64,000 nucleotides of DNA, taken from contig CAWHPR010000004.1 in assembly GCA_963831295.1 (NCBI GenBank), positions 2,026 to 66,025 on the forward strand, given 5' to 3'. The first letter of the stretch is position 1. Each line of letters opens with the position of its first letter. Of the stretch, positions 2,884 to 34,315 are shown one piece after another. The notes beneath the pieces were generated by a model that saw only the letters and a program-made list of their open reading frames with translations, did no database searches and was not told where the DNA came from. This stretch comes from an uncultured Thermoleophilia bacterium (lineage in GTDB: Bacteria > Actinomycetota > Thermoleophilia > UBA2241). The position numbers and the translations under genes were made by a program.

Positions 2884-2927
2884 GCGCAGCCTTGCCGTGA
2901 GTGGTGATGCACACGGCAAGGCTGCGC
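2884..2927 (+). terminator. Perfect 16-bp stem hairpin downstream of the SBP gene
   Basis: gcgcagccttgccgtg (2884-2899) pairs with cacggcaaggctgcgc (2912-2927) around a 12-nt loop. There is no U-tract, which is common in high-GC genomes. Confidence 0.5.
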
Positions 2928-2978
2928 CGAGGTCACGGTCCCATCCAGCCAGACCGACGAGGAAAGCAGGCACAGAAT

Positions 2979-4073
2979 ATGTCCGCGTCCTTTCTGCACG
3001 TGTGCGCGCGCGGCGCCCACCGAGTGATCGGTCGCGCGATCGGCGAGGCGGCTGCGAGTCGGATCGCGACCGCGGTCTCCTTCTACAAGGAGCACTTCGC
3101 TCACATGGCCGGCATCTCGTTCGAAGAAGCCGAGAGCCGAGCGATGGAGTACCTGCCGCATGCCCGCCGTTGCCTGCCCCAATATGTGGACGAGCTCACG
3201 GGCATGGCCGAGGGGAGCCAGGTGCCGTTCGTCGAGCTTCTGGTCCTCAACTGCGCCGAGGAGTTCACGTGCGCTGCGGATGCCGGCGGCGCGGCGTCGC
3301 CCGATCGTAGGACCGTGGGTGAGCGTGGGTGCACTGTGGCGGGCGTCGTGCGCGGCGATCGTCACGTTGTGGGCCAGAACATGGACTGGTATGTCGTCGA
3401 TGTGGACACGAACGTCCTCTTCGACCTCACGATGGTCGACGGCACCCGCCTGCTGACGATCGGCAGCGTGCCCTACTTGCCCATGGCTGGCATGAACTCG
3501 CACGGTGTCGCCTATGGAGGCAACGCGGTCTACTCGAACGACAACCGATTGGGTGTCCCCAATGCGTTCGTGCGTCGCTGGGTGCTCGAGGCAGCGACAC
3601 TGGAGGAAGCATACGCGCGCGCCTGCATGCCTGGACGCGCGCGCGGATCCAACCACTTCCTCGCGGATACGGCAGGGCGTCTCTGGAACGTGGAGACGTC
3701 GTCCGGTCGGGCGAGCCGTGTGGACTCGTCCAAATGGCTGGCGCACACGAATCACTATGTCACGCCCGATATGGCGAGCTACGAGAGCAACCACGGCGAG
3801 GAGTCCCGGTCGCGACTGGCCAGCGCGGAAGCCGCCCTCGCCCGAGGGTATGAGAGTGCGGAAGACCCTGTCGAGTTGCTGACGTCCCTGTTGCGCAGTC
3901 ACGACGAAAGCAGCGGCGCGGGCGGCGCCGTCTGTGTCCACCCCGACATGTCCCTACGGGTCGCGGATCGCGGCACGACAGCCGCGAGCATGGTCATGGA
4001 TCTCGACCAGGGACGGCTGTCGGCGTGCGCGGGGCCGCCGTGCGAGAACGCCTATCAGGAGTTCGTCCTGTGA
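2979..4073 (+). CDS. Peptidase C45 / acyl-CoA:6-aminopenicillanic-acid acyltransferase-family protein
   Basis: Lies in ORF 2901-4073. ATG at 2979 follows ggaaagcagg. Family-like motifs: ERGCTVAG (candidate nucleophile Cys), GQNMDW, MNSHGVAYGGN, GSNHFLAD, HTNHY. Confidence 0.7.
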   Translation: MSASFLHVCARGAHRVIGRAIGEAAASRIATAVSFYKEHFAHMAGISFEEAESRAMEYLPHARRCLPQYVDELTGMAEGSQVPFVELLVLNCAEEFTCAADAGGAASPDRRTVGERGCTVAGVVRGDRHVVGQNMDWYVVDVDTNVLFDLTMVDGTRLLTIGSVPYLPMAGMNSHGVAYGGNAVYSNDNRLGVPNAFVRRWVLEAATLEEAYARACMPGRARGSNHFLADTAGRLWNVETSSGRASRVDSSKWLAHTNHYVTPDMASYESNHGEESRSRLASAEAALARGYESAEDPVELLTSLLRSHDESSGAGGAVCVHPDMSLRVADRGTTAASMVMDLDQGRLSACAGPPCENAYQEFVL

Positions 4074-4160: not shown

Positions 4161-4934
4161 TCAGGCCACGTTCATCGCCCGCAGCCGCCAGGTCGCAAGG
4201 ACGACCGCGATGACCGACGCGATCGCCAGGGTGGCGAGCGAGCCGGACAGGCCGATCGCGTTCTCGAGCGCGAAGTCCGGATCGTCCGTGAGGGCCGCGA
4301 AGATCGAGCCGACGAAGTGCCGGATGCTCACGTACCGCAGGCCGGGGACGAAGCGCCCCAGGATCGACTCCCACACGAAGAGGTAGATGAGGGCGGCCAC
4401 CAGCGCGCGCGAGATCAGCAGGCTGACGAGCATGAAGATCGACGAGTACGTGATCGTGGCGACGAGCGCGGCGACGATCATGGCGAAGAGCAGCCGCAGA
4501 TGCTCGCCGGAGTCGCCCTGCATCACCAGCAGGTAGGCCATGGTCAGGCCGAGCACCACGATCGGCCCCGAGACCATCACGCTGCCGGCGAGCTTCTCGA
4601 TCACGATCCGGGACCGGCTGACCGGCTTGAGGGTGAGGAAGGGCAGCGTGCGGTCCTCCACCTCGTTGCCGAACGCACTCGTCGCGAGGACCAGCACGAT
4701 GAGCGGCAGGAGCGTCGGGATCATCAACTCGATGAAGACCGCCTTGCCGAGGAAGAGGTCGGGTCGCGCCCAGTCCGGCTGGATGAGGTAGATCGCGCCG
4801 AAGAGGAGCGGGAGAAGGGCAAGGCCGCTCACGACCCTGATGGCCTTGCCCTCCAGGAACTGCCTGACCGTGAGCGTCGACGATGGGAAGACGTTGCCGG
4901 ATGATGTTCACTGGTATCGCCGCCCGCCTGTCAT
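4161..4934 (-). pseudogene. ABC-2 type transporter permease with an in-frame TGA at 4908-4910 (or a shortened gene starting at GTG 4832)
   Basis: ORF 4161-4832 encodes a six-TM ABC-2 permease. Upstream in the same frame is typical N-terminal sequence TLTVRQFLEGKAIRV. ATG 4932-4934 overlaps the upstream ATPase stop (ATGA), but codon 9 is TGA. Confidence 0.6.
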
Positions 4935-5918
4935 CTCTCCACCAGATACGAGAACACCGACTGCAGCGACTCGTCTCCGGCCTGGACCTCGAAGAGGCGG
5001 ATGTCCGCCTGTCTCGCCAGGTCCGGCAGGGCTTTGTAGAAGCCGCGAGCGTCGCTCGTCTCCGCCAGGATGCGGCTCTCGCTCTCGACCTTGACCGAAC
5101 GCGTGGCGGGGTGCCCGATGAGCGCGACCGCGAGCCGGCGCGGGTGGTCTGACCGGATCCGGACCGTGTGGTCGTGCCCGTCGATCTTGTCGCGGATGAC
5201 GCGGTAGTCACCGACGGCAGCCAGCCTGCCGTTCACGAGGACGATGATGTCGTCGGCGAAGCGTTCGACCTCGGCCAGGACGTGCGACGAGACCAGGATC
5301 GTCTTCGTGCGTCCGAGCGCGCGGATCAGGTCGATCATGTGGGCGCGCTGGGCGGGGTCCATGCCGCTCAGCGGCTCGTCCATGAGCACGACGTCCGGGT
5401 CGTGGACCAGCGCGCCCGCCACCTTGATCCGCTGGCGCATGCCCTTCGAGTAGCCGCCGATGCGCCGGTCGGCCGCGGCGGTCATCTCGACGGTCGCGAG
5501 GGCATGGTCGGTCGCCTGGCCGGCGTTCTTCAGCTTCTGCAGGGTCGCGTTGAGGCGCACGAACTCGCGACCCGTCAGGAACGGATAGACCGTCTCCGAT
5601 TCGTGCACGAGGCCGAAGCGGCGGTACAGGTCGACGGCGCCTCGGATCGGGCGTCCGTGGATCCGGATCGTCCCGCTCGAGGGGCGGAGCAGGCCGGCCA
5701 TCATCTTCAGGATGGTCGACTTGCCCGCGCCGTTGGGCCCGAGCAGGGCGGTGACGCCCGGCGCGACCCCGAAGGAGACGTCGGAGACGGCGACGATGTC
5801 GCGGTACCACTTGGAGACGCCCTCGACGAGGATCGTCGGCTCGGTCCCCGCGACGACGCCGGGGAGGAGGACCGGGGCCGCCGCCGCGCCGGCGGCCGAA
5901 GGGGGTCCTGCCGCTCAT
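4931..5918 (-). pseudogene. ABC transporter ATP-binding protein, frameshifted near its 5' end
   Basis: Walker A LLGPNGAGKSTILKMMAGLL, signature YSKGMRQR and Walker B VVLMDEPLSGMD are present. The frame containing Walker A has no start codon. The coupled ATG (5916-5918) is in another frame. Removing one G from the G5 run at 5901-5905 joins MSGRTP to SAAGAAAAPVLLPGVVAGTEPTILVEGVSKWY. Confidence 0.65.
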
Positions 5919-5919
5919 C

Positions 5920-6824
5920 TCAGTCCTCCGGCACATAGCGCCAGATCATCACCGCACAGCCGATGACGATCGTCACAGTCATGCCCGCAGCATACGCCCA
6001 CCACTGGAACGGGATGTCGACGCCACCGGTTCCGCATCGGGAAGAGCGAGTACGCGAGGCTGTTCGCGATCGTCGCCGGACTGAGGAAGGTGATCCAGTC
6101 GGCGATGCCGTGCTCGCGCAGCGCGTAGGCGAGCGTGTTGACGAGGCCCTCCGTCACCAGGTAGCCGACGACGATCACGGGGATGGCGATCACCTTCCGT
6201 CCCGTGAACGACGAGATCGCCAGCCCGATCGCGCCGAGATAGAGCGAGATGAGCCCGCCGGCGAGGGCGATCCTCGCGAGGTCGCCGATGTTGTCCGCGA
6301 GCGCGCTCAGCGGTGCGTCCGCGAGCAGATTGCGGAAGAGCCAGAGGATCGCCGCCGGCACGAACGACAGCGTCAGCGTGAGGATCGCCGTCGCCGCGAG
6401 CTTGGCCAGCACGTAGTCCAGCCGGGTGATCGCCCTGGAGAAGTAGAGCGTCAGGACGTTCTCGCGGCGGTCGGGGCAGAGCATCTCCGGCGCGATCGTC
6501 GCGACGAAGAGCCCCTCGATGACGAAGATGAAGCCGAAGAAGTCGCCGTACTCCATCAGCGCTCTGCCGGTCAGGGGCGCGAGGAACGCCTCGACTCCGA
6601 TCACGACGAGCACGGTCCCGGCCGCGACCGCGTAGAGGATGATCGGGACGATCTTCGCGGTCCAGCGCTTCCTGATCCCGAGCGCTCTGCTGATCGAGTA
6701 TCGGGTCAGGGCGCGGAAGGCGTGACGACCGGCCGAGGCGTTCCCCCTCGTAGTGCTTGTAGCCGCGGTCGTAGACCTCGCCGTAGCGCCCGGGCCGGCC
6801 CGTCGCCTTGTCAGGAGCCGCCAT
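5920..6824 (-). pseudogene. ABC-2 family permease (YDRGYKHYEG-type N-terminus) split over three reading frames
   Basis: The N-terminus MAAPDKATGRPGRYGEVYDRGYKHYEGERLGR is in the frame of ORF 5979-6860. The TM core is ORF 5915-6613. The C-terminal TM helix GVDIPFQWWAYAAGMTVTIVIGCAVMIWRYVPED* is in the third frame (stop 5920-5922). The shifts lie near 6722-6732 and 6010-6045. Confidence 0.6.
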
Positions 6825-7804
6825 CGGCGTCTCCCGCCTCGGCAGGTCGCTCGACCTCACCGATGTAGATGTCCTCGAGCGACTGCACGGGCTGTCGCAG
6901 CGAGCGCAGGCCGACGCCGAGATCGGCGGCCACGTCGCGCAGCGCGTCGAAGACGCGGTCGTCGTCGTGGCGGACCACCAGCTCGTCGCGCGCGGTCAGC
7001 TCGTCTCCTGAACCCCGGACCGCGTGGACCCCGACACCGGCAAGCCGCTGGATGAACGCGTCGACATCACCGTCGATCCGGACGCGCAGATCGCCCTGCT
7101 CGGTCCCGATGCCTTCGATCGGCTGTGCGAGCACGAGTCTTGCCCTCGCTCAAGATCACGACGTAGTCGCAGACACGCTCGACGTCCTCGAGGATGTGCG
7201 AGGAGACGATCAGCGAGATGCCGAGCATCCGATGGGTCCGCTTGATCAGATCGAGCATGTCGTCTCGACCCTGCGGGTCCATCCCGATGGTCGGTTCGTC
7301 GAGGCAGAGGAGCCCGGGATCGTGCACGATCGCCTGCGCGAGCTTGACGCGCTGCTTCATGCCGGTGGACAGACCCTTGATCAGGCGGTAGCGCTCTTCG
7401 TCGAGGCCGACCTGGTAGAGCACGTCGGCGGCTCGAAGGCGAGCCGCGCGGGCGGGCAGGCCGCTCATCTCGGCCATGTGGCCCACGAGATCGGCAGCCG
7501 TCGTGCCCGCCGGCAGCACATCGGACTCCGGCATGTAGCCGACGTGCTCACGGACCTTGACGCCCTGCGAGCGGGTGTCGAGGCCGAGCACGCTGGCCGT
7601 GCCCTCGGTGGGGTCCGTCAGCCCGAGCAGGATCCGGAGCAGGGTCGTCTTGCCGGCCCCGTTGGCGCCGAGCAGGCCGACCGCGGCTCGCGGGATCGTC
7701 AGATCGAGGCGATCCAGGGCGACGACATCCCCGAAGCGCTTGCGCACGCCGCGGATCTCGACGGCCGGCTGCGCCACGGCGCTCTGTGCACCATCAGCTG
7801 ACAA
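6811..7804 (-). pseudogene. ABC transporter ATP-binding protein, frameshifted near 7138
   Basis: ORF 7067-7804 carries Walker A GANGAGKTT, signature LSTGMKQR and Walker [13 protein letters not shown], then turns Arg-rich after ..VVILSEGK. ORF 6811-7134 supplies the expected C-terminal domain LVLAQPIEGIGTEQGDLRVRIDGD...SLEDIYIGEV. Confidence 0.65.
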
Positions 7805-7880
7805 TCGGGGTCGTCCTCCTGATCGCGAGCGGTTCGATGCGTGGTCCGGCTCCTATGATAGTGCGCGCGCCGGGTCTCGC

Positions 7881-8116
7881 GTGAGCGCCGGCGGCGCGCC
7901 GACGTCGAGCCGGCGTGTGCCCGCCGGGCGTACCGGCCGCGGCGGGAGAGCCAGGTCGCCTCGCGGACGAGCCCGTCGGAGAAGGCGAGCACCCGATTGC
8001 GCCCGGCGCGTTTGGCCGCGTACATCGCCCAGTCCGCCTTGTCGAGCAGTTCGTCCTTCGCGGCGGCGTCATCTGGGTAGGTGGCCACGCCGATGCTCAC
8101 GGTCAGAGGACGGCCC
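7881..8116 (-). repeat. Direct-repeat copy A: a displaced 3' fragment of the GGDEF gene plus its downstream sequence
   Basis: Nt 7946-8106 are 161/161 identical to 9889-10049 and encode PLTVSIGVATYPDDAAAKDELLDKADWAMYAAKRAGRNRVLAFSDGLVREATWLS. The flank 7881-7945 is about 85% identical to 9825-9888, with one indel. The stop codon of copy B is not conserved in copy A. Confidence 0.9.
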
Positions 8117-8175
8117 GCGGCCGCCGCACGCGCCGCCCGACCTTGTCTGCTGGCGGCGCGAAGCCGCCACACGAT

Positions 8176-8198
8176 TGATATTATGAGCATACGCTCTC
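8176..8198 (+). promoter_or_regulatory. Motif copy A: tgatattatgagcatacgctctc, containing the near-palindrome GAGCATAnGCTC
   Basis: An AT-rich island in a 70% GC background, about 210 nt upstream of the CGGC gene. It shares 21/23 nt with copy B at 8899-8921. Confidence 0.45.
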
Positions 8199-8405
8199 TT
8201 CGGGTACGAGGCTGCCTCCTTCAGCATGAGGCTGGCGGAGTCCTTGACGAGACGGAAGGGCGACAGGTGCGTCCGCATGACGGCGCTCATGGCGGCGCCA
8301 CAGAGTCCTGAGCGAGCATGTCCGGCGACATCGTCGAGAGCTCGTCGGCGTGCCGCACGTGGGTTCACAGGAGCGCTGCCCACCGCTCAGGAGGAGGCAA
8401 ACGTC

Positions 8406-8843
8406 GTGAAGAAGATCGGCATCATCATCTGTGACCGCTATCACACCTGCGCCGGAGGCAAGTGTCTGCGGGCCATGCGCCAGCGAGAGGGTGCGTTTGC
8501 CCGCTACGGCGATGAAGAGATCGAGCTGGTCGGTTATACGACCTGCGGCGGATGTCCGGGCGGCAACGTCGAATACGCCCCCGCCGAGATGAAGAAGAAC
8601 GGCGCCGGGGTGGTGCACCTTGCCACCGGTCTGGTGGTCGGGTACCCGCCCTGCCCCCGGCTCGAGACGTTCGAGGCGCTTCTCGCGGAGAAGTACGGCA
8701 TGGAGGTGGTCGTCGGCACCCACCCCATCCCGGAGAGCTACTTTCAGACGCACACGAGCTTGAGGACGTGGGACTCTGCGCGCTGGCAGGAGCGCGTCAA
8801 GGACCTGCTGGCGAACGAGGAGACTCGGCGCGCGTACGACTGA
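8406..8843 (+). CDS. CGGC domain-containing protein
   Basis: GTG at 8406 follows caggaggagg. The sequence VKKIGIIICDRYHTCAGGKCL...VGYTTCGGCPGGN...GYPPCP shows the Cys pattern and central CGGC of the CGGC domain family. Confidence 0.8.
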   Translation: MKKIGIIICDRYHTCAGGKCLRAMRQREGAFARYGDEEIELVGYTTCGGCPGGNVEYAPAEMKKNGAGVVHLATGLVVGYPPCPRLETFEALLAEKYGMEVVVGTHPIPESYFQTHTSLRTWDSARWQERVKDLLANEETRRAYD

Positions 8844-8898
8844 TCGCTCGCGGCAGCACCTGTGCGGCGGGGAGGGACTGAAAGTGCCGTCTCGCCAG

Positions 8899-8927
8899 TG
8901 ATATTATGAGCATATGCTCTCTATACT
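8899..8927 (+). promoter_or_regulatory. Motif copy B with a promoter-like layout: TGATAT, a 17-nt spacer holding the perfect palindrome GAGCATATGCTC, then TATACT
   Basis: tgatat (8899-8904), spacer tatgagcatatgctctc, tatact (8922-8927). It lies about 65 nt upstream of the NifU-like start. Confidence 0.5.
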
Positions 8928-8991
8928 AAGTGCCGCCCGGCCTGCGGACTACGTTCGTGCAGGCGAGCTGAGAGAGAGAAGGAGAAGAGAA

Positions 8992-9423
8992 GTGGCATGT
9001 GACGATGGAGGCGGCTTCTCGCCGGTAGCACTCGATCATGCGCTGTATCCGCGCCACTGCGGGCCGGCGCAGCAGTACGACGGGCATGTCCGCATCACGG
9101 GACCCTGCGGCGACACGATGGAGTTCTGGGTGACTCTCCGGGAGGCCTCCATCGAGCGCGTCTCCTTCGTGACGGACGGCTGCGGCGCTTCACGCGCATG
9201 CGGGAGCATGGCAGTGACACTGGCTGAGGGGAGGCGCCTCGACCAGGCGCTCGCGCTCGAGCAGGCAGAGATCCTCGATGCGCTCGGCGGGATACCGGCG
9301 GAGTCGGAGCATTGTGCGCTCTTGGCCGCCACGACGCTGCGAGCCGCCTGCCGAGAGTGTCTGCCTCACCAAGCCGGAGGGCGCGCACAGGTGCCCACCG
9401 GGGAGATAGCACAGGAGGAATGA
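8992..9423 (+). CDS. NifU/IscU-like Fe-S cluster scaffold domain protein
   Basis: GTG at 8992 follows gaaggagaag. The three scaffold cysteines are in context: TGPCGDTMEFW, DGCGASRACGS, EHCALLAATTL. Confidence 0.8.
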   Translation: MACDDGGGFSPVALDHALYPRHCGPAQQYDGHVRITGPCGDTMEFWVTLREASIERVSFVTDGCGASRACGSMAVTLAEGRRLDQALALEQAEILDALGGIPAESEHCALLAATTLRAACRECLPHQAGGRAQVPTGEIAQEE

Positions 9424-9764
9424 TCATGAGGATCGCCATACCCCTCAGCGGGGAGAGACTCTCCCCGCACTTCGGTCACTGCGAGCGCTTCGCCCTCGTG
9501 GACGTCGACCGCGCGGAGAAGAAGATCGTCGACCGGACGGACGTCGTCGCGCCTCCGCACGAGCCGGGGCTGTTGCCGGCCTGGCTGGCCGAGCATGGGG
9601 CGACGATGATCATCGCCGGCGGCATGGGGCAGCGCGCGCAGGGGCTGTTCACCAGCCAAGGCATAGACGTCGTCGTGGGAGCCGATGCGCGGACCCCGGA
9701 GCTGCTGGTAGCGGACTACCTTGCCGGCACACTCAGAGCGGGAGAGAACATCTGCGATCACTGA
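9420..9764 (+). CDS. NifX/NifB-C-terminal-like (dinitrogenase FeMo-cofactor biosynthesis family) small protein
   Basis: ATG at 9420 overlaps the upstream TGA (ATGA) and follows caggagg. Sequence MIMRIAIPLSGERLSPHFGHCERFALVDV...MIIAGGMGQRAQGLFTSQGIDVV. Confidence 0.8.
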   Translation: MIMRIAIPLSGERLSPHFGHCERFALVDVDRAEKKIVDRTDVVAPPHEPGLLPAWLAEHGATMIIAGGMGQRAQGLFTSQGIDVVVGADARTPELLVADYLAGTLRAGENICDH

Positions 9765-9824
9765 AGTCGTCTCGTCGGCGGCCGAAGAGGCGCAGACATC
9801 CTGCGAATGGTGGGGAGCGCTGAT

Positions 9825-10059
9825 GTGAGCGCCGGCGACGCCCCGACTTCGAGTCGGTGTGTGCCGGCGGGCCTAGCGGCCGCGGCGTGAGAGCCAGGTC
9901 GCCTCGCGGACGAGCCCGTCGGAGAAGGCGAGCACCCGATTGCGCCCGGCGCGTTTGGCCGCGTACATCGCCCAGTCCGCCTTGTCGAGCAGTTCGTCCT
10001 TCGCGGCGGCGTCATCTGGGTAGGTGGCCACGCCGATGCTCACGGTCAGGGGACAGCTG
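9825..10059 (-). repeat. Direct-repeat copy B: the functional 3' end of the GGDEF gene plus 48 nt downstream
   Basis: See copy A. The offset between the two copies is 1943 bp. Confidence 0.9.
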
Positions 10060-12194
10060 TCGGCCGCGCTGTCGCGCTCCACCTCGAAACGGATCCGTTC
10101 GGCGACGGTCATCGCCCCGGCGCCGTCGGTGTCCACCAGGACGAGGACGAACTCCTCCCCTCCGTAGCGGGCCGCCAGGTCGATCCGGCGGCTGCAGGCC
10201 TCGGCGATGCGCCCGATGCGCCCGAGGGCGTCGTCGCCCGCCTTGTGGCCGTGGGCGTCGTTGTAGCTCTTGAACTCGTCGCAGTCGAAGAACAGCAGGC
10301 TCAGCTTGCTGCCGTGCCTGTGGGCGCGTTCGAGCTCCTCCTCGAGGCGCTCGTGCAGGTAGCGATGGTTGTAGAGCCCGGTCAGGCCGTCGGTGATCGC
10401 TTCGACCTCGGCCCGGCTGAAGCGGACGGCAGCCGACTGCAGCATCGCCGCGAGAATGTGAGATCGGTCCGGCACCTGTCGCTGACCGAGCATCGTCAGC
10501 GCAGGCGCATCGATGGTCACGGCCCCGACGACGGCGCCTTCCGGCGTGCGTATCGGTGCGATGCCGGATACCCAGACTCCGAAGTCGTCGGCGTTGAGGA
10601 CGTTGCCCTTGAGGCTCTCGCCGGCAAGCACTGCGGCGAGCTCGTCATGAGGCAGCCACGGGTCGCCGGGATGCGAGATCTCGCTCTCGCTCTCGCCCGT
10701 GTCGAGCACCGTGACGCACTGGTCGTCGATCATGGTGAAGCTCGTGATGAAGCGCACACCGGGGTTCTCCTTGTGCAGCACCCGCAGCGCCTCGACCATC
10801 TCGCGGTAGTCGGGGCGCGCTTCGTCGGCGCGGGTGCGCAGCAGAACGTGCTTGGCGGGATCGATCAGGTCCGCGGCACGGGCGGCCAGCGCGTTGACGT
10901 GCGTCCGCCGTCGTCGCAGGCGCGCCAAGGCGCGCAAGAACGCGGCCACCATGTCGGGGTCGAACTGCGTGCCTGAGCAGCGCCGCAGTTCGGCGAGGCA
11001 CTGCCGGTAGCTGAGGGCGCGGCGGTAGGGCCGCTCGCAGGACATGGCGTCGTAGCAGTCCACCACGCACAGGGCGCGCGCCACCCAAGGGATCTCCACG
11101 CCGCGCAGGTTGTCGGGATACCCGCTCCCGTCGAAACGCTCGTGGTGGTGACGCACGCCGGCCACGAGTTCGTCGTCGAACAGCGGGCGCACGATCTCGG
11201 CGCTGATGCCGGGGTGTTGGCGGACGAGCTCCCACTCCTCCGAGGTCAGCGGCCCCGCCTTGAGCAACACGCGGTCGGAGAGACCGATCTTGCCGATGTC
11301 GTGCAGGAAGGCCACGTTCTGCAACTCCTCCAGGCGGTCGTCGGGCCACCCCAGTTCGTTGCCCAGCAGGGACGCATAGGCGGCCACCCGGCCGGCGTGG
11401 CCGAGCGTGTAGTAGTCCTTGGCGCTCAGGGCTGAGCTGAGGGCGCGCAGATTGCCGAGGTGGAGGCGCCGCACCTCCTCGTAGAGCTGCGCATGCTCGA
11501 GCGCCAGGGCCACGAGCTTCGCGACGGCCTCGGCGACCGAGATCTCCTCATCGGCGAAGCCGCGCTCGACGTGGTCGAGCAGCTGGACGGCGCCGATCAC
11601 CTTGTCGCGGGCGATCAGCGGCAGGGAGATGAAACTGTGCTGGTGCGAAGCGAGGTAGATGTCGCGTTCGATCGCCGCAAGGCGGGGGTCGTCCACGGTG
11701 CTGAACGTGACGGGCCGGCGCGTCTCTATGGCGAGGCGGATGGACCCCCACTGGTCGAGGGCCAACTCGCGCCCCGCCCAGGCCTTGTCGAGCACTCCGT
11801 CCGTGCTGGAGGCGACGCAGATCAGCGTGTCGTCGCCGGCCAGCCGGTAGATGTCGCAGTCGGGAAGCTCAAGGGCCGCACTCAGACGTCGCGCTGCCGA
11901 CTGCATGACTTCGTCGAGATCGAGGGTGGAGGCCAGCTCGAGACTCGTGTCGAGCAGCAGTTGGTAGCGCTCCTCGGCGTCGCCGGGTCGCGGCTCGGGC
12001 CGGCCCTCGTGGGCCGCCGGCGCCACGACCGCCTCGAGGTCGTCGAGCAGGAAGCGTCGCTGGCCGCTTGGCATGCGCCGGCTGACCAGCCGGCCGCTGT
12101 CGGCCCAGCGGCGCACGGTCGTGGCGCTGACGCCGAGAACGTCTGCCGCGTTCTGCACGCGCAACCACGCAGGCTGTGTGGGGGCTGCTCTCAT
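9873..12194 (-). CDS. Multidomain c-di-GMP protein: excisionase/MerR-type HTH, GAF, HD-GYP, sensor domain, GGDEF
   Basis: 773 aa. HTH LRVQNAADVLGVSATTVRRWADSGRL. HD-GYP motifs HDIGK and HHERFDGSGYP. GGDEF domain TGLYNHRYL...RYGGEEFVL. Confidence 0.85.
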   Translation of the reverse strand: MRAAPTQPAWLRVQNAADVLGVSATTVRRWADSGRLVSRRMPSGQRRFLLDDLEAVVAPAAHEGRPEPRPGDAEERYQLLLDTSLELASTLDLDEVMQSAARRLSAALELPDCDIYRLAGDDTLICVASSTDGVLDKAWAGRELALDQWGSIRLAIETRRPVTFSTVDDPRLAAIERDIYLASHQHSFISLPLIARDKVIGAVQLLDHVERGFADEEISVAEAVAKLVALALEHAQLYEEVRRLHLGNLRALSSALSAKDYYTLGHAGRVAAYASLLGNELGWPDDRLEELQNVAFLHDIGKIGLSDRVLLKAGPLTSEEWELVRQHPGISAEIVRPLFDDELVAGVRHHHERFDGSGYPDNLRGVEIPWVARALCVVDCYDAMSCERPYRRALSYRQCLAELRRCSGTQFDPDMVAAFLRALARLRRRRTHVNALAARAADLIDPAKHVLLRTRADEARPDYREMVEALRVLHKENPGVRFITSFTMIDDQCVTVLDTGESESEISHPGDPWLPHDELAAVLAGESLKGNVLNADDFGVWVSGIAPIRTPEGAVVGAVTIDAPALTMLGQRQVPDRSHILAAMLQSAAVRFSRAEVEAITDGLTGLYNHRYLHERLEEELERAHRHGSKLSLLFFDCDEFKSYNDAHGHKAGDDALGRIGRIAEACSRRIDLAARYGGEEFVLVLVDTDGAGAMTVAERIRFEVERDSAADSCPLTVSIGVATYPDDAAAKDELLDKADWAMYAAKRAGRNRVLAFSDGLVREATWLSRRGR

Positions 12195-12362
12195 CGCCGG
12201 GGTTATCGGCCGCCGCAGGCCGGTTCTTGACCACTACTTCCATCGGAGCGCGGTCGCGACGGCGATGCGACGAGCGACCGGCCCAGTGCATCGGGGGCTG
12301 GGGCGCCGGGCTAGGGCATCGGGGTGGCCTCGTATATGGTAGCCGCAGGAGGGTAGACCACC

Positions 12363-13466
12363 ATGACACCGATCCCCGCGCTTCCGTCACTCACGATCAA
12401 GGGCGTCCGTCTCCCCGTGCCGATCGTCCAAGGCGGCATGGGGATCGGCGTTTCCCTCAATCCGCTTGTCAGCGCCGTGGGCAGCGCCGGAGGGCTCGGC
12501 CTGCTGTCGAGCGCCGGCCTGGACCGGATCGTCTCCCAGCGCCTGGGACGCACGCTCGATACCTATGCGGCCGTGCGTGAGGAGGTCGCGGCCGCCAAGG
12601 CCGGAGGCGGCTGTGCCGGCATCAACATCATGGTCGCCCTCCAGCGTGACTACGAGGCCTCGGTGCGCGGCGCTATCGACGCCGGGGTCGACGCCATCGT
12701 CTCCGGCGCGGGATTGCCGCTCTCGCTGCCGGACATCCGGCCGTCGGGAGACACCGCTCTCATCCCCATCGTCTCGTCCGCTCGCGCTCTCGATCTGATC
12801 TGCCGGCGCTGGGAGCGCCAGCACTACCGCCCGGACGCGGTGGTCCTCGAGGGACCGCTCGCGGGCGGGCACCTCGGGTTCCGGATGGATCAGATCGACC
12901 TCGAGGAGAACAGGCTCGAGCGGCTCCTGCCGCCGGTGAAGAGCGTGGCGCAGGCGCGCGGCGACTTCCCGGTCATCGTCGCCGGGGGTATCTACGACCA
13001 CGCGGACATCCGCCGCTTTCTGGCGCTCGGCGCCGACGCGGTGCAGCTCGGCACGCGCTTTCTGGCGACCGACGAGAGCAGCGCCAGCGACGCGTACAAG
13101 CAGGCAGTGGTGCGAGCCGGGCCGCAAGACATGCTCGTGGCGTACGCCCCGGGCTCACCCTGTCGCCTGCCGTTCCGCGTGCTGCGAGAGTCGCCGATGT
13201 ATCAGTCGGCCCTGGCTCGGCGACGCAAGCCGAAGTGCGACAAGGGCTACGTGCTCGTCAAGGACGACGCGGGCCGGTTCACGCATTGCCCGGCGAAGTA
13301 CGACAACGAGCGCGACTTCTGCATCTGCAACGGCCTCTTCAGCAGCACGGCTGCGTACGAGAGCGGCGAGGAGGAGCCGCTCTATACGGCGGGCACGAAC
13401 GTGTGCAGGGTGGACCGCATCGTCCCCGTCCGCGAGCTGATGGCAGAGCTCACGGGGGTCGTGTAG
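12363..13466 (+). CDS. Nitronate monooxygenase / FabK-like FMN-dependent oxidoreductase
   Basis: PIVQGGMGIGVS, EGPLAGGHLGF, VIVAGGIYDHADI and GADAVQLGTRFLAT are typical of the NMO (2-nitropropane dioxygenase) family. Confidence 0.8.
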   Translation: MTPIPALPSLTIKGVRLPVPIVQGGMGIGVSLNPLVSAVGSAGGLGLLSSAGLDRIVSQRLGRTLDTYAAVREEVAAAKAGGGCAGINIMVALQRDYEASVRGAIDAGVDAIVSGAGLPLSLPDIRPSGDTALIPIVSSARALDLICRRWERQHYRPDAVVLEGPLAGGHLGFRMDQIDLEENRLERLLPPVKSVAQARGDFPVIVAGGIYDHADIRRFLALGADAVQLGTRFLATDESSASDAYKQAVVRAGPQDMLVAYAPGSPCRLPFRVLRESPMYQSALARRRKPKCDKGYVLVKDDAGRFTHCPAKYDNERDFCICNGLFSSTAAYESGEEEPLYTAGTNVCRVDRIVPVRELMAELTGVV

Positions 13467-13706
13467 GGGGCGTGATCGCGCCGCCCCCGGCTCAAGCACC
13501 TCTCGACAGCTGCGAATCGGCACTGCCGAGTTGGTGCTATCCTTAGAGCAGGTTCACCGAGTGTTCGGCACCAATCGCCCCCGGTCCGACGACGAGCTCG
13601 CGCGTCTCCGCGCCCCGCAGGGTATCGCGTGTCTGGCGAGTCGTCTGCAGCGTCTTTCTGAGCAGGCCGCTGGCCGTGACTCGCAACGAAGAGCAGGAGA
13701 CGTCGA

Positions 13707-33514: not shown

Positions 33515-33646
33515 GTCGTGACGCTCCGCTGTTGCGTTACAGGTCGAGGGACGGTGTCCATGCGGGACTGCGCCCGCGCCGTCTTGTGCCGCCCCCGCTT
33601 CACACTCCTTGTCTCGGGCGAGCCTCGCTGCCGTCGGAAGCGGCGA

Positions 33647-33675
33647 GAATAGTGAGCTTATGCTCATATGATACG
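33647..33675 (-). promoter_or_regulatory. Motif copy C: gtatcatatgagcataagctcactattc on the minus strand, upstream of the CoA-binding gene and in the divergent Rrf2 intergenic region
   Basis: Core gagcataagctc is the reverse complement of 33654-33665. It has the same ATGAGCATAnGCTC core as 8185-8196 and 8908-8919. Confidence 0.4.
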
Positions 33676-33901
33676 TGCGAGCGGGTGCGGCCAGGGCTGC
33701 GTTCCGCGCACGGGACGGCCAACGAGACCGCGCTGCCGTGGCCGTTCTGTCGACGTCTCCGCTGCTCGGGTCGGGCTACGGTGCGGTCGTATTCCTGGCG
33801 CAGACGGACGCCGTGAAGCCCAGGAGGCTTGACAGCTCTCCGCGCGGCAGTGACTATTCGCCTAATCCCTATCTCCAACAAGGGAATTGGAGAGTCCGAG
33901 C

Positions 33902-34315
33902 GTGGAGATCCCGCTTCGTACTCAGTACGCGTTGCGAGCGCTGGTATGCCTTGCCCTCAAGCGGGGGGAGGGCGTCCTGAACGGTCAGCGCATCGCGGCG
34001 CTCGCCGGCATCCCGAAGAAGTACGTGGAGCAGGTGATGCGCGACCTGCGTCAGAGCGGTTTCGTCGTGAGCCGGCGCGGCCGAGGGGGCGGGTACGCAC
34101 TCAGCCGGCAGGCATCGGCCATGTCGGTCCTCGAGGTCATCGAGACGCTCGACGGCTCGCTCGACGATCTGGGGCGGGTCCGGGACCGTGATCCCGGAGC
34201 GCCACTGCTCGAGCCGATGTGGGGCGCCGTCCGGGGTGCGCTGCGCGACGCTCTCGCCGGGGAGACCATCGCGAGCGTCGCCGACCGGGCCACCGTCACC
34301 ACCTACCAGATCTGA
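33902..34315 (+). CDS. Rrf2-family transcriptional regulator (CymR/IscR-like, no obvious 3-Cys cluster)
   Basis: VEIPLRTQYALRALVCLA...IPKKYVEQVMRDLRQSGFVVSRRGRGGGYAL. GTG at 33902 follows ggagag; an alternative TTG start is at 33887. Confidence 0.8.
   Translation: MEIPLRTQYALRALVCLALKRGEGVLNGQRIAALAGIPKKYVEQVMRDLRQSGFVVSRRGRGGGYALSRQASAMSVLEVIETLDGSLDDLGRVRDRDPGAPLLEPMWGAVRGALRDALAGETIASVADRATVTTYQI

Follow-up and report, generated by a model that had tools for sequence, protein, structure and literature searches.

What kind of event places a small block of metabolic genes between duplicated 3' ends of a neighboring gene and leaves that gene whole? The question is raised by a locus in a 64,000-nucleotide stretch of contig CAWHPR010000004.1 (assembly GCA_963831295.1, positions 2,026 to 66,025; referred to here as the window) from an uncultured Thermoleophilia bacterium. 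The 3' end of a gene encoding a protein with HTH, GAF, HD, and GGDEF domains (the GGDEF gene) occurs there twice in direct orientation, as copies A and B, and the ~1.7-kb block between the copies (the cassette) contains genes for a CGGC-domain protein, a NifU_N-type scaffold protein, and a NifX-like protein and nothing else. The original prediction had likened this arrangement either to the attL/attR signature of an element integrated with a replacement gene end or to a Campbell-type single crossover. In a close relative the same locus is found with the cassette missing, and on balance it is somewhat probable that the cassette is a presence/absence variant generated and kept up by the homologous-recombination machinery of the host, through a single crossover of the Campbell type or a duplicative event of equivalent outcome.

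The repeat is real and lies where it had been placed, with a similarity between the copies that extends ~8 bp farther than had been described, to positions 8124 and 10067. A repeat search of the window recovered it as two segments, 7921-8124/9864-10067 at 96% identity and 7881-7927/9825-9871 at 85% identity; between these segments the spacing of the copies changes from 1944 to 1943, and there is therefore one indel. BLASTN of one copy against the window returned the other copy only (93.9% over 244 bp, E value of 2e-104) and no third copy in the 64 kb. In a pairwise alignment, A and B diverge distally and at their proximal edges and are identical over a long block in between. The longest stretch free of differences is a core of 161 bp, and both this fully identical core and a distal part of ~85% identity with one indel were confirmed. 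Copy B completes the GGDEF gene, as had been proposed. The translation of copy A is identical (100%) to the 59 C-terminal residues of the GGDEF protein, and because its stop codon reads TAC rather than TAG, copy A is a dead fragment; its read-through open reading frame (ORF) covers positions 116 to 161 of the Pfam GGDEF profile. Copy A also contains a further ~20 to 35 bp of weaker GGDEF-family similarity, up to ~8145, that is absent from the sequence of copy B.

The GGDEF protein was useless as a query for the orthologous locus in other genomes because its family is highly paralogous. Its exact sequence is on record (P0001, 100%), and it has 170 relatives in the contigs of species-representative genomes, with several per metagenome-assembled genome (MAG) and almost all of them in Thermoleophilia/Actinomycetota MAGs from peat and soil. 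In a comparison of 80 genome loci (L001 to L080) and 120 database proteins, no relative shared the neighbor genes of the window. Full-length relatives were at most 76% identical to the window protein, and a partial match (L049) reached 79%. Several copies with 65 to 76% identity are present per genome, for example, at four loci each in bog_752 and MFD02138.bin.2.13. The ABC transporter operon forms the chromosomal flank on the copy-A side, and a query with its ATPase found close relatives at 97, 94, 91, 89, 88, and 87% identity.

The 97% match lies on ENA ERZ25039477 contig_43153 (L083), in which the gene order is MMPL, sigma-70, NMO, a GGDEF-type gene, and four ABC genes. Positions 4863-9897 of L083 match window positions 14837-9825 at 90.7% identity, and positions 9653-13618 match window positions 8124-4158, including the ABC operon, at 95.2%. 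The 245 bp at L083 9653-9897 align to copies A and B alike, which means that L083 carries one copy of the repeat. The DNA comparison found no L083 counterpart of window positions 8125-9824, and no cassette genes are present in the 21-kb L083 locus. The L083 locus is thus the empty site that had been predicted for a relative, with the ABC operon directly abutting the GGDEF gene. L083 represents a conspecific or sister-species genome, since its housekeeping segments are 94 to 98% identical to those of the window and its GGDEF gene is 80 to 92% identical. The window's arrangement of genes lacking the repeat, which would have spoken for ancestral synteny, was found in none of the relatives.

More distant relatives helped to locate the edges of the variable segment. 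No GGDEF gene lies beside the ABC operon in L084, L085, L086, or L088, and no cassette is present at the ABC site in L084 to L088. Conservation upstream of the ABC operon starts, in L087, L084, and L088, no more than a few bases from window position 7881, with unrelated DNA beyond it; the distal end of the repeat is accordingly a module boundary as well. An alignment of seven relatives places this conservation from about CGCGAGACCCGG to the start codon. At the opposite edge, the NifU and NifX proteins of the window cluster with proteins from two Joint Genome Institute (JGI) metagenomes (contigs L089 and L170). These contigs match window positions 8898-9825 at 94.3% identity, with DNA unrelated to the window on either side; the left limit of the match falls precisely on the NifU promoter motif (8898) and the right limit precisely on the cassette/copy-B junction, and the NifU-NifX unit in L089 and L170 does not adjoin a GGDEF gene. 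Given these limits, 9824/9825 is a true breakpoint, and the NifU-NifX transcription unit is a separable module that occupies another context in a related lineage. The suggestion that the cassette might be found elsewhere with different flanks was therefore borne out for its NifU-NifX half, with breakpoints that match the repeat boundary; the whole three-gene block was not seen.

About 200 bp upstream of NifU-NifX, both of these contigs (L089 50-107 and L170 1-60) carry a fragment resembling the 3' half of tRNA-Arg(CCT). It consists of an anticodon-arm-like stretch, a T-arm (GCTGG-TTCGATT-CCAGC), and the terminal sequence CGGGGGC-A-CCA, lacks a 5' half, and marks the point upstream of which L089 and L170 differ. 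The fragment may be a remnant of an island attachment site and a hint of how the module travels. Neither the window nor L089 yielded a complete tRNA or a transfer-messenger RNA (tmRNA).

The differences within the repeat were classified with L083 as the reference, and sites at which A, B, and L083 all differ are given here in parentheses. In the 161-bp core, 13 sites are private to L083 (A = B) and none are private to A or to B. In the distal 65 bp, 3 sites are private to L083, 3 (+1) to A, and 5 (+1, including the indel) to B; the corresponding counts in the proximal 42 bp are 3, 12 (+4), and 4 (+4). Neither copy is a distant paralog, because both carry the states of the window lineage in comparison with L083. 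The ends of A and B are as diverged as neutral DNA is between the window and L083, and the middle contains no difference. By our own arithmetic, ~12 differences distributed randomly over 244 bp would leave the core untouched with a probability of ~(83/244)^12, or ~2e-6. The simplest cause of the identical core would be gene conversion that followed an older duplication and acted between the copies. The distances in the proximal 42 bp are 11 for B-L083, 19 for A-L083, and 20 for A-B, and those in the distal 65 bp are 7 for A-L083, 9 for B-L083, and 9 to 10 for A-B, such that L083 is nearer to the outer ends (B proximal and A distal) than to the inner ends (A proximal and B distal). This is the direction predicted for the reciprocal hybrids of a single crossover, whose inner ends would derive from the incoming DNA and whose outer ends would derive from the chromosome, but very few sites are involved.

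From these observations we infer a crossover mechanism, a subsequent gene conversion, and a direction for the event. The ancestral locus would have contained the NMO gene, the GGDEF gene, a ~50-nt terminator region, and the ABC operon, as L083 does. A single reciprocal crossover between this chromosome and a circular DNA carrying the block together with a GGDEF 3' end of homologous sequence, or a duplicative recombination that results in the same geometry, would have left an upstream copy B that keeps the gene whole and a downstream copy A as a dead fragment. Gene conversion between A and B would later have erased the differences in the 161-bp core as the ends went on diverging, and the same repeats would allow a precise, RecA-dependent loss of the block that returns the locus to the L083 state. 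Insertion is somewhat more parsimonious than loss, and of the mechanisms named in the original prediction, it is the Campbell-type single crossover that remains the best fitting. As in Campbell-type integration and excision, the insert lies between direct copies of a homology that is present once at the empty site, one copy completes the gene and the other is truncated, no dedicated recombinase is needed, and excision restores the site. The locus is unlike such integration in that diverged ends surround an identical core and in that the cargo appears to be host-regulon DNA and not a replicon.

Several observations count against this crossover. For the window cassette, neither a circular form nor a plasmid or donor with the whole block was observed. 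A crossover alone leaves no identical 161-bp core if donor and recipient differed, and it is for this reason that gene conversion has to be invoked as a second process. The hybrid-like distances are explained equally well by a faster decay of the dead copy A. The GGDEF-ABC junction is present in one other genome only, so that gain and loss cannot be polarized; the use of L084 to L088 as outgroups for this purpose failed, as they have no GGDEF gene at the site. The left (CGGC) boundary of the cassette is unmappable in the absence of a DNA-level relative of the CGGC unit, and none was found in the databases searched. Finally, both assemblies contain frameshifts, and single-base differences, including the indel, are consequently not fully trustworthy. 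Relative to L083, the ABC genes of the window change frame at ~7138 (ATPase 1) and at ~6728 and ~6030 (permease 1), where the L083 counterparts are intact proteins of 321 and 299 amino acids (aa), and the GGDEF gene of L083 (7401-9848) is broken into several frames. These frame changes are either indel errors of long-read assembly or real pseudogenes.

Table 1. Features of the cassette locus and of the third operator-like site, with positions in the window
Feature	Position	Strand	Remarks
ABC-2 type transporter operon (ATPase, permease, ATPase, permease)	4161..7804	-	Pfam ABC_tran / ABC2_membrane
Conserved upstream/promoter region of ABC operon	7805..7880	-	Begins at end of copy A
Repeat copy A	7881..8124	-	Dead copy: last 62 codons of GGDEF gene plus ~50 nt of downstream hairpin region
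Core of copy A	7946..8106	-	161 bp, 100% identical to 9889-10049 in copy B
Promoter/operator 1 (putative)	8163..8199	+	TGATATTAT extended -10, then near-palindrome GAGCATACGCTC; upstream of CGGC
CGGC-domain protein gene	8406..8843	+	145 aa, GTG start after GGAGGAGG; PF08821, 9.7e-30
Promoter/operator 2 (putative)	8886..8922	+	TGATATTAT, then perfect palindrome GAGCATATGCTC; upstream of NifU
IscU/NifU_N-like scaffold gene	8992..9423	+	143 aa; PF01592, 2.5e-21
NifX/NifB-C-like (Nitro_FeMo-Co) gene	9420..9764	+	PF02579, 4.7e-21
3' tail of NifU-NifX module	9765..9824	+	Homology with L089 stops at 9825
Repeat copy B	9825..10067	-	End of GGDEF gene in functional form: last 62 codons with stop codon at 9873-9875, then hairpin region downstream
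HTH_17/MerR-GAF-HD_5 (HD-GYP type)-GGDEF gene	9873..12194	-	Intact, 773 aa; Pfam
Promoter/operator 3 (putative)	33645..33672	-	TATCAT-ATGAGCATAAGCTCA; upstream of CoA_binding_2 gene, adjoins Rrf2-CysK pair

Whether the cassette is foreign to its host is a question on which its promoters bear. The block is predicted to form two transcription units, P-CGGC and P-NifU-NifX, each preceded by one member of a 37-nt repeat (family D6; operators 1 and 2, 84% identical). Both promoters share a 23-nt design, GATATTATGAGCATAyGCTCTCT, in which an extended -10 element is followed by a 12-bp palindrome, and a search for this motif gave 2 matches versus 0 expected. It is located at 8177-8199 and 8900-8922 in the window. 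The more general design consists of a -10 box (TATTAT, TATAAT, or TATCAT) leading directly into a palindrome (TGAGCATATGCTCA), and this form is present at 324 in L089 and at 277 in L170 and recurs at a third site in the window, beside which an Rrf2 gene (33887-34315) is accompanied by CysK. L081, another Thermoleophilia genome, encodes a CGGC protein that is 83% identical, and around its CGGC gene the motif is present three times within 7 kb (5748-5761, 8534-8547, and 12156-12169), where it precedes genes for PNPOx and a nitroreductase as well as a DUF5320-Fer4-CbiA cluster. The motif is a candidate operator of a redox/Fe-S regulon in two Thermoleophilia genomes. Because it recurs both elsewhere in the window and in L081, the cassette probably consists of host-regulon DNA under a lineage-specific operator rather than foreign cargo. 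The palindrome was read as operator-like because it is found only at the 5' end of each unit, where it overlaps the -10 box, and a dif/Xer-type or integron-type site was dropped on the same grounds. A literature search on the operator sequence turned up nothing relevant. The GC content of the cassette (62 to 70%, versus ~70% in the flanks) is not anomalous, and searches of viral and plasmid sequences found no relatives of it.

The first alternative to an insertion is that the repeat-flanked cassette is the older state and that L083 lost it by recombination between A- and B-type repeats, its empty site being a deletion scar. This is possible but less probable than the insertion. Deletion between 244-bp direct repeats with an identical core of 161 bp is mechanistically easy, and the distal, noncoding divergence between A and B (~15%) is as large as the intergenic divergence between the window and L083 (~14% by eye over the 86 bp that precede the ABC start; 81% identity at 12238-12437). 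Since these divergences match, the duplication would be at least about as old as the split between the window and L083. The distal site pattern, in which A has 3 to 4 private sites, L083 has 3, and B has more (5 to 6), is as expected if the L083 copy descends from A; however, these counts are too small for significance. A loss in L083 also requires two events, an ancestral gain followed by the loss, rather than one, and L084 to L088, in which the GGDEF gene and the cassette are both missing from the site, give it no help. Under this alternative, the first formation of the repeat-cassette-repeat structure lies further back.

It is unlikely that the structure arose by a one-sided event, in which homologous recombination anchored in the GGDEF gene was combined with an illegitimate join and the resident 3' end was displaced downstream, or by replication template switching that copied the 244 bp twice. 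Positions 8107-8146, beside the copy-A/cassette junction, are unusually mutated (12 to 16 private sites in 42 bp, versus 3 to 4 in 65 bp at the other end) and could be the scar of an illegitimate or error-prone join. However, a one-sided model predicts that the proximal part of copy A should be nearest to L083, and it is the farthest (19/42, versus 11/42 for copy B). No microhomology of more than 1 nt is visible at the mapped junction, and in the transformation literature duplication, unlike deletion of recipient DNA, is not the usual result of homology-facilitated illegitimate recombination. The architecture of the window does match that of the effector-displacement loci of type VI secretion systems (T6SS), Rhs proteins, and contact-dependent inhibition (CDI) systems, for which PMC5361080 describes an intact gene followed by new DNA and then a dead, orphan 3' fragment, with homology within the gene guiding the event, and invokes homology-facilitated illegitimate recombination, a mechanism defined in PMC3240628. 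The window locus is unlike these systems in that its two ends encode the same C terminus and no function is replaced, in that the inserted genes are unrelated to the target and lie in the opposite orientation, and in that no orphan arrays are present at the 80 loci of the GGDEF family.

A more novel reading, that of a recombinase-free "hitch-hiking" cassette that carries its own copy of the 3' end and terminator conserved in the multicopy GGDEF family and has this 3' end as its landing pad, seems very unlikely. If it were true, host RecA could drop the block downstream of any member of the family with the gene unbroken, and the block could pop out again; the two units, P-CGGC and P-NifU-NifX, separated by the 37-nt promoter repeat, could have been stacked by the same trick. 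We rate it low because the 80 other family loci show nothing similar, and an orphan GGDEF 3' fragment was found at 0 of the 80.

It is highly improbable that the structure is an artifact in which a long-read assembler joined two strain variants, one with the empty site and one with the cassette at another place, into a false repeat-cassette-repeat unit. The frameshifts of the window and L083 are typical of error-prone long-read assemblies, and a closely related empty-site genotype does occur in the same study series. However, copy A has diverged ends of its own, a lost stop codon, and its additional ~20 to 35 bp of GGDEF-family homology, which a misjoin would not make, and the 1.9-kb unit is short enough to be contained in single long reads. 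An independent Logan short-read contig from ERR12035938 (1560 bp) encodes a CGGC protein identical to that of the window, is placed by its identical gene spacing at window positions 8077-9636, and crosses the copy-A/cassette junction. It begins 31 nt before 8108, the position that follows the core, as expected of a k = 31 graph at a repeat.

The least credible of the readings with a case of its own is the attL/attR one, in which an element whose recombinase is encoded elsewhere inserted into the GGDEF 3' end while carrying a replacement end. With integrative elements that target 3' ends, the locus shares direct repeats of a gene's 3' end at both boundaries, a target gene that is left intact, and the presence of an empty site in a close relative, and NifU-NifX in L089 and L170 lies ~200 bp from a tRNA-Arg-like fragment, a type of remnant found at island edges. 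The reading is not supported, however. Pfam searches found no integrase, excisionase, recombinase, transposase, or relaxase in the cassette or in the ~8 kb on either side, as had been noted, and the neighboring genes belong to ABC, NMO, sigma-70, MMPL, SBP_bac_5, AAT, B12-binding, and MTTB families. The homology of 244 bp, with its 161-bp core, is ~10 times as long as usual att cores and is not a short crossover site; both copies carry window-lineage states; the cargo is 1.7 kb of metabolic genes whose promoters carry what appears to be the host operator and of which no viral or plasmid copies were found; and there is no recurrence at the other family loci. A transposon or insertion sequence (IS) does not fit the locus either, as there is no transposase, the repeat search found no terminal inverted repeats that would pair one end of the cassette with the other, and the duplicated segment, at 244 bp, greatly exceeds a transposition footprint.

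The contents of the cassette agree with the prediction of three genes for CGGC, NifU, and NifX-like proteins, with the latter two coupled through an ATGA overlap at 9420-9423, as judged from Pfam matches and the sequence itself. All three domain assignments are well above their gathering cutoffs, with bit scores of 76.6 versus 22 (PF01592), 75.3 versus 26.3 (PF02579), and 103.4 versus 27 (PF08821). The NifU_N ORF spans 8914-9423, with a likely GTG start at 8992 behind AGGAGAAGAG; its product, the exact 143 aa of which are on record, contains the CGD, GCGAS, and HC cysteine motifs of the IscU type. The NifX-like gene overlaps the NifU stop codon, and gene callers start it at the ATG at 9426. 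Homologs of the CGGC protein (P0121 to P0240) are 72 to 85% identical across several phyla, with 85% for the best protein match. Proteins of exactly 145 aa occur in this identity range across Actinomycetota, Chloroflexota, Spirochaetota, and Desulfobacterota, a degree of conservation that is unusual in a family of no known function; the literature search on the CGGC domain turned up nothing relevant. A leader of ~200 nt (8200-8405) separates the CGGC promoter/operator from the CGGC start codon; it has no Rfam match and folds no better than shuffled sequences (z = -1.1), and no Rfam matches were found anywhere in 7500-10300.

The three genes had been described as an uncharacterized neighborhood, which holds for CGGC but not for the trio, since the trio is a recurrent Fe-S carrier neighborhood. 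Among 80 metagenome loci with a NifU homolog, 45 had a NifX-like gene and 14 had a CGGC gene at a distance of no more than 4 kb; when only loci with at least 3 kb on both sides were considered (n = 30), these numbers were 23/30 and 8/30. The common form is a NifU_N domain fused to a Mrp/NUBPL-type ParA ATPase, followed by NifX and CGGC, and in L157 the genes for NifU_N-ParA, NifX, and CGGC are in a row beside CbiA-Fer4 and radical SAM genes. The cassette trio would be a minimal version of this widespread neighborhood. Like the Fe-S carrier neighborhoods of anaerobes, it has the same three domain families on one strand; unlike them, its NifU_N stands alone, without a Mrp/NBP35/NUBPL-type ParA ATPase, and its order is CGGC-NifU-NifX with two separate promoters. 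NifU is directly followed by CGGC in L096, L098, L106, L113, and L126. Upstream of CGGC in L081, uncalled DNA at 7800-7960 resembles the 3' end of NifU_N (...ESE.CALLAATTLRAAC...) and is probably a decayed or frameshifted NifU. The counts of colocation give quantitative support to the view that the CGGC family belongs with Fe-S carrier proteins.

Two further observations concern the flanks. The nearest neighbor of the window GGDEF gene shifts along its length, which suggests mosaic evolution or saturation. A search for a foreign replacement end of this gene by sliding-window nearest neighbors was uninformative, every relative being at least 10% diverged in each window of that scan. At the other flank, the synteny between the window and L083 stops at ~4158, just past the last ABC permease. 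Beyond this point L083 has kdpABC-kdpD, and the window instead encodes an acyltransferase of the AAT family (2901-4073), a solute-binding protein of the SBP_bac_5 family (910-2847), and a regulator of the AsnC type (25-696). Position ~4158 is a second rearrangement breakpoint, at most 4 kb from the cassette.

The locus is thus an ordinary insertion/deletion variant of the recombination type, neither a self-mobile element nor a new class of mobile element; the kind of event is known, and an under-sampled class here supplies a further instance of it. Its value is that of a clean natural example of a small metabolic block moving without a dedicated mobility gene in an uncultured and poorly sampled actinobacterial class. 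It is clean because the breakpoints lie at the boundaries of transcription units, the target is kept by its duplicated 3' end, and conversion would keep the repeats recombinogenic, and it is useful as a worked example for the study of pangenomes and structural variants in long-read MAGs. A by-product that is perhaps more practical is the candidate operator TATTAT-GAGCATATGCTC, which would link the genes for CGGC, NifU/NifX, CoA-binding, PNPOx, nitroreductase, and DUF5320-Fer4-CbiA proteins in two Thermoleophilia genomes.

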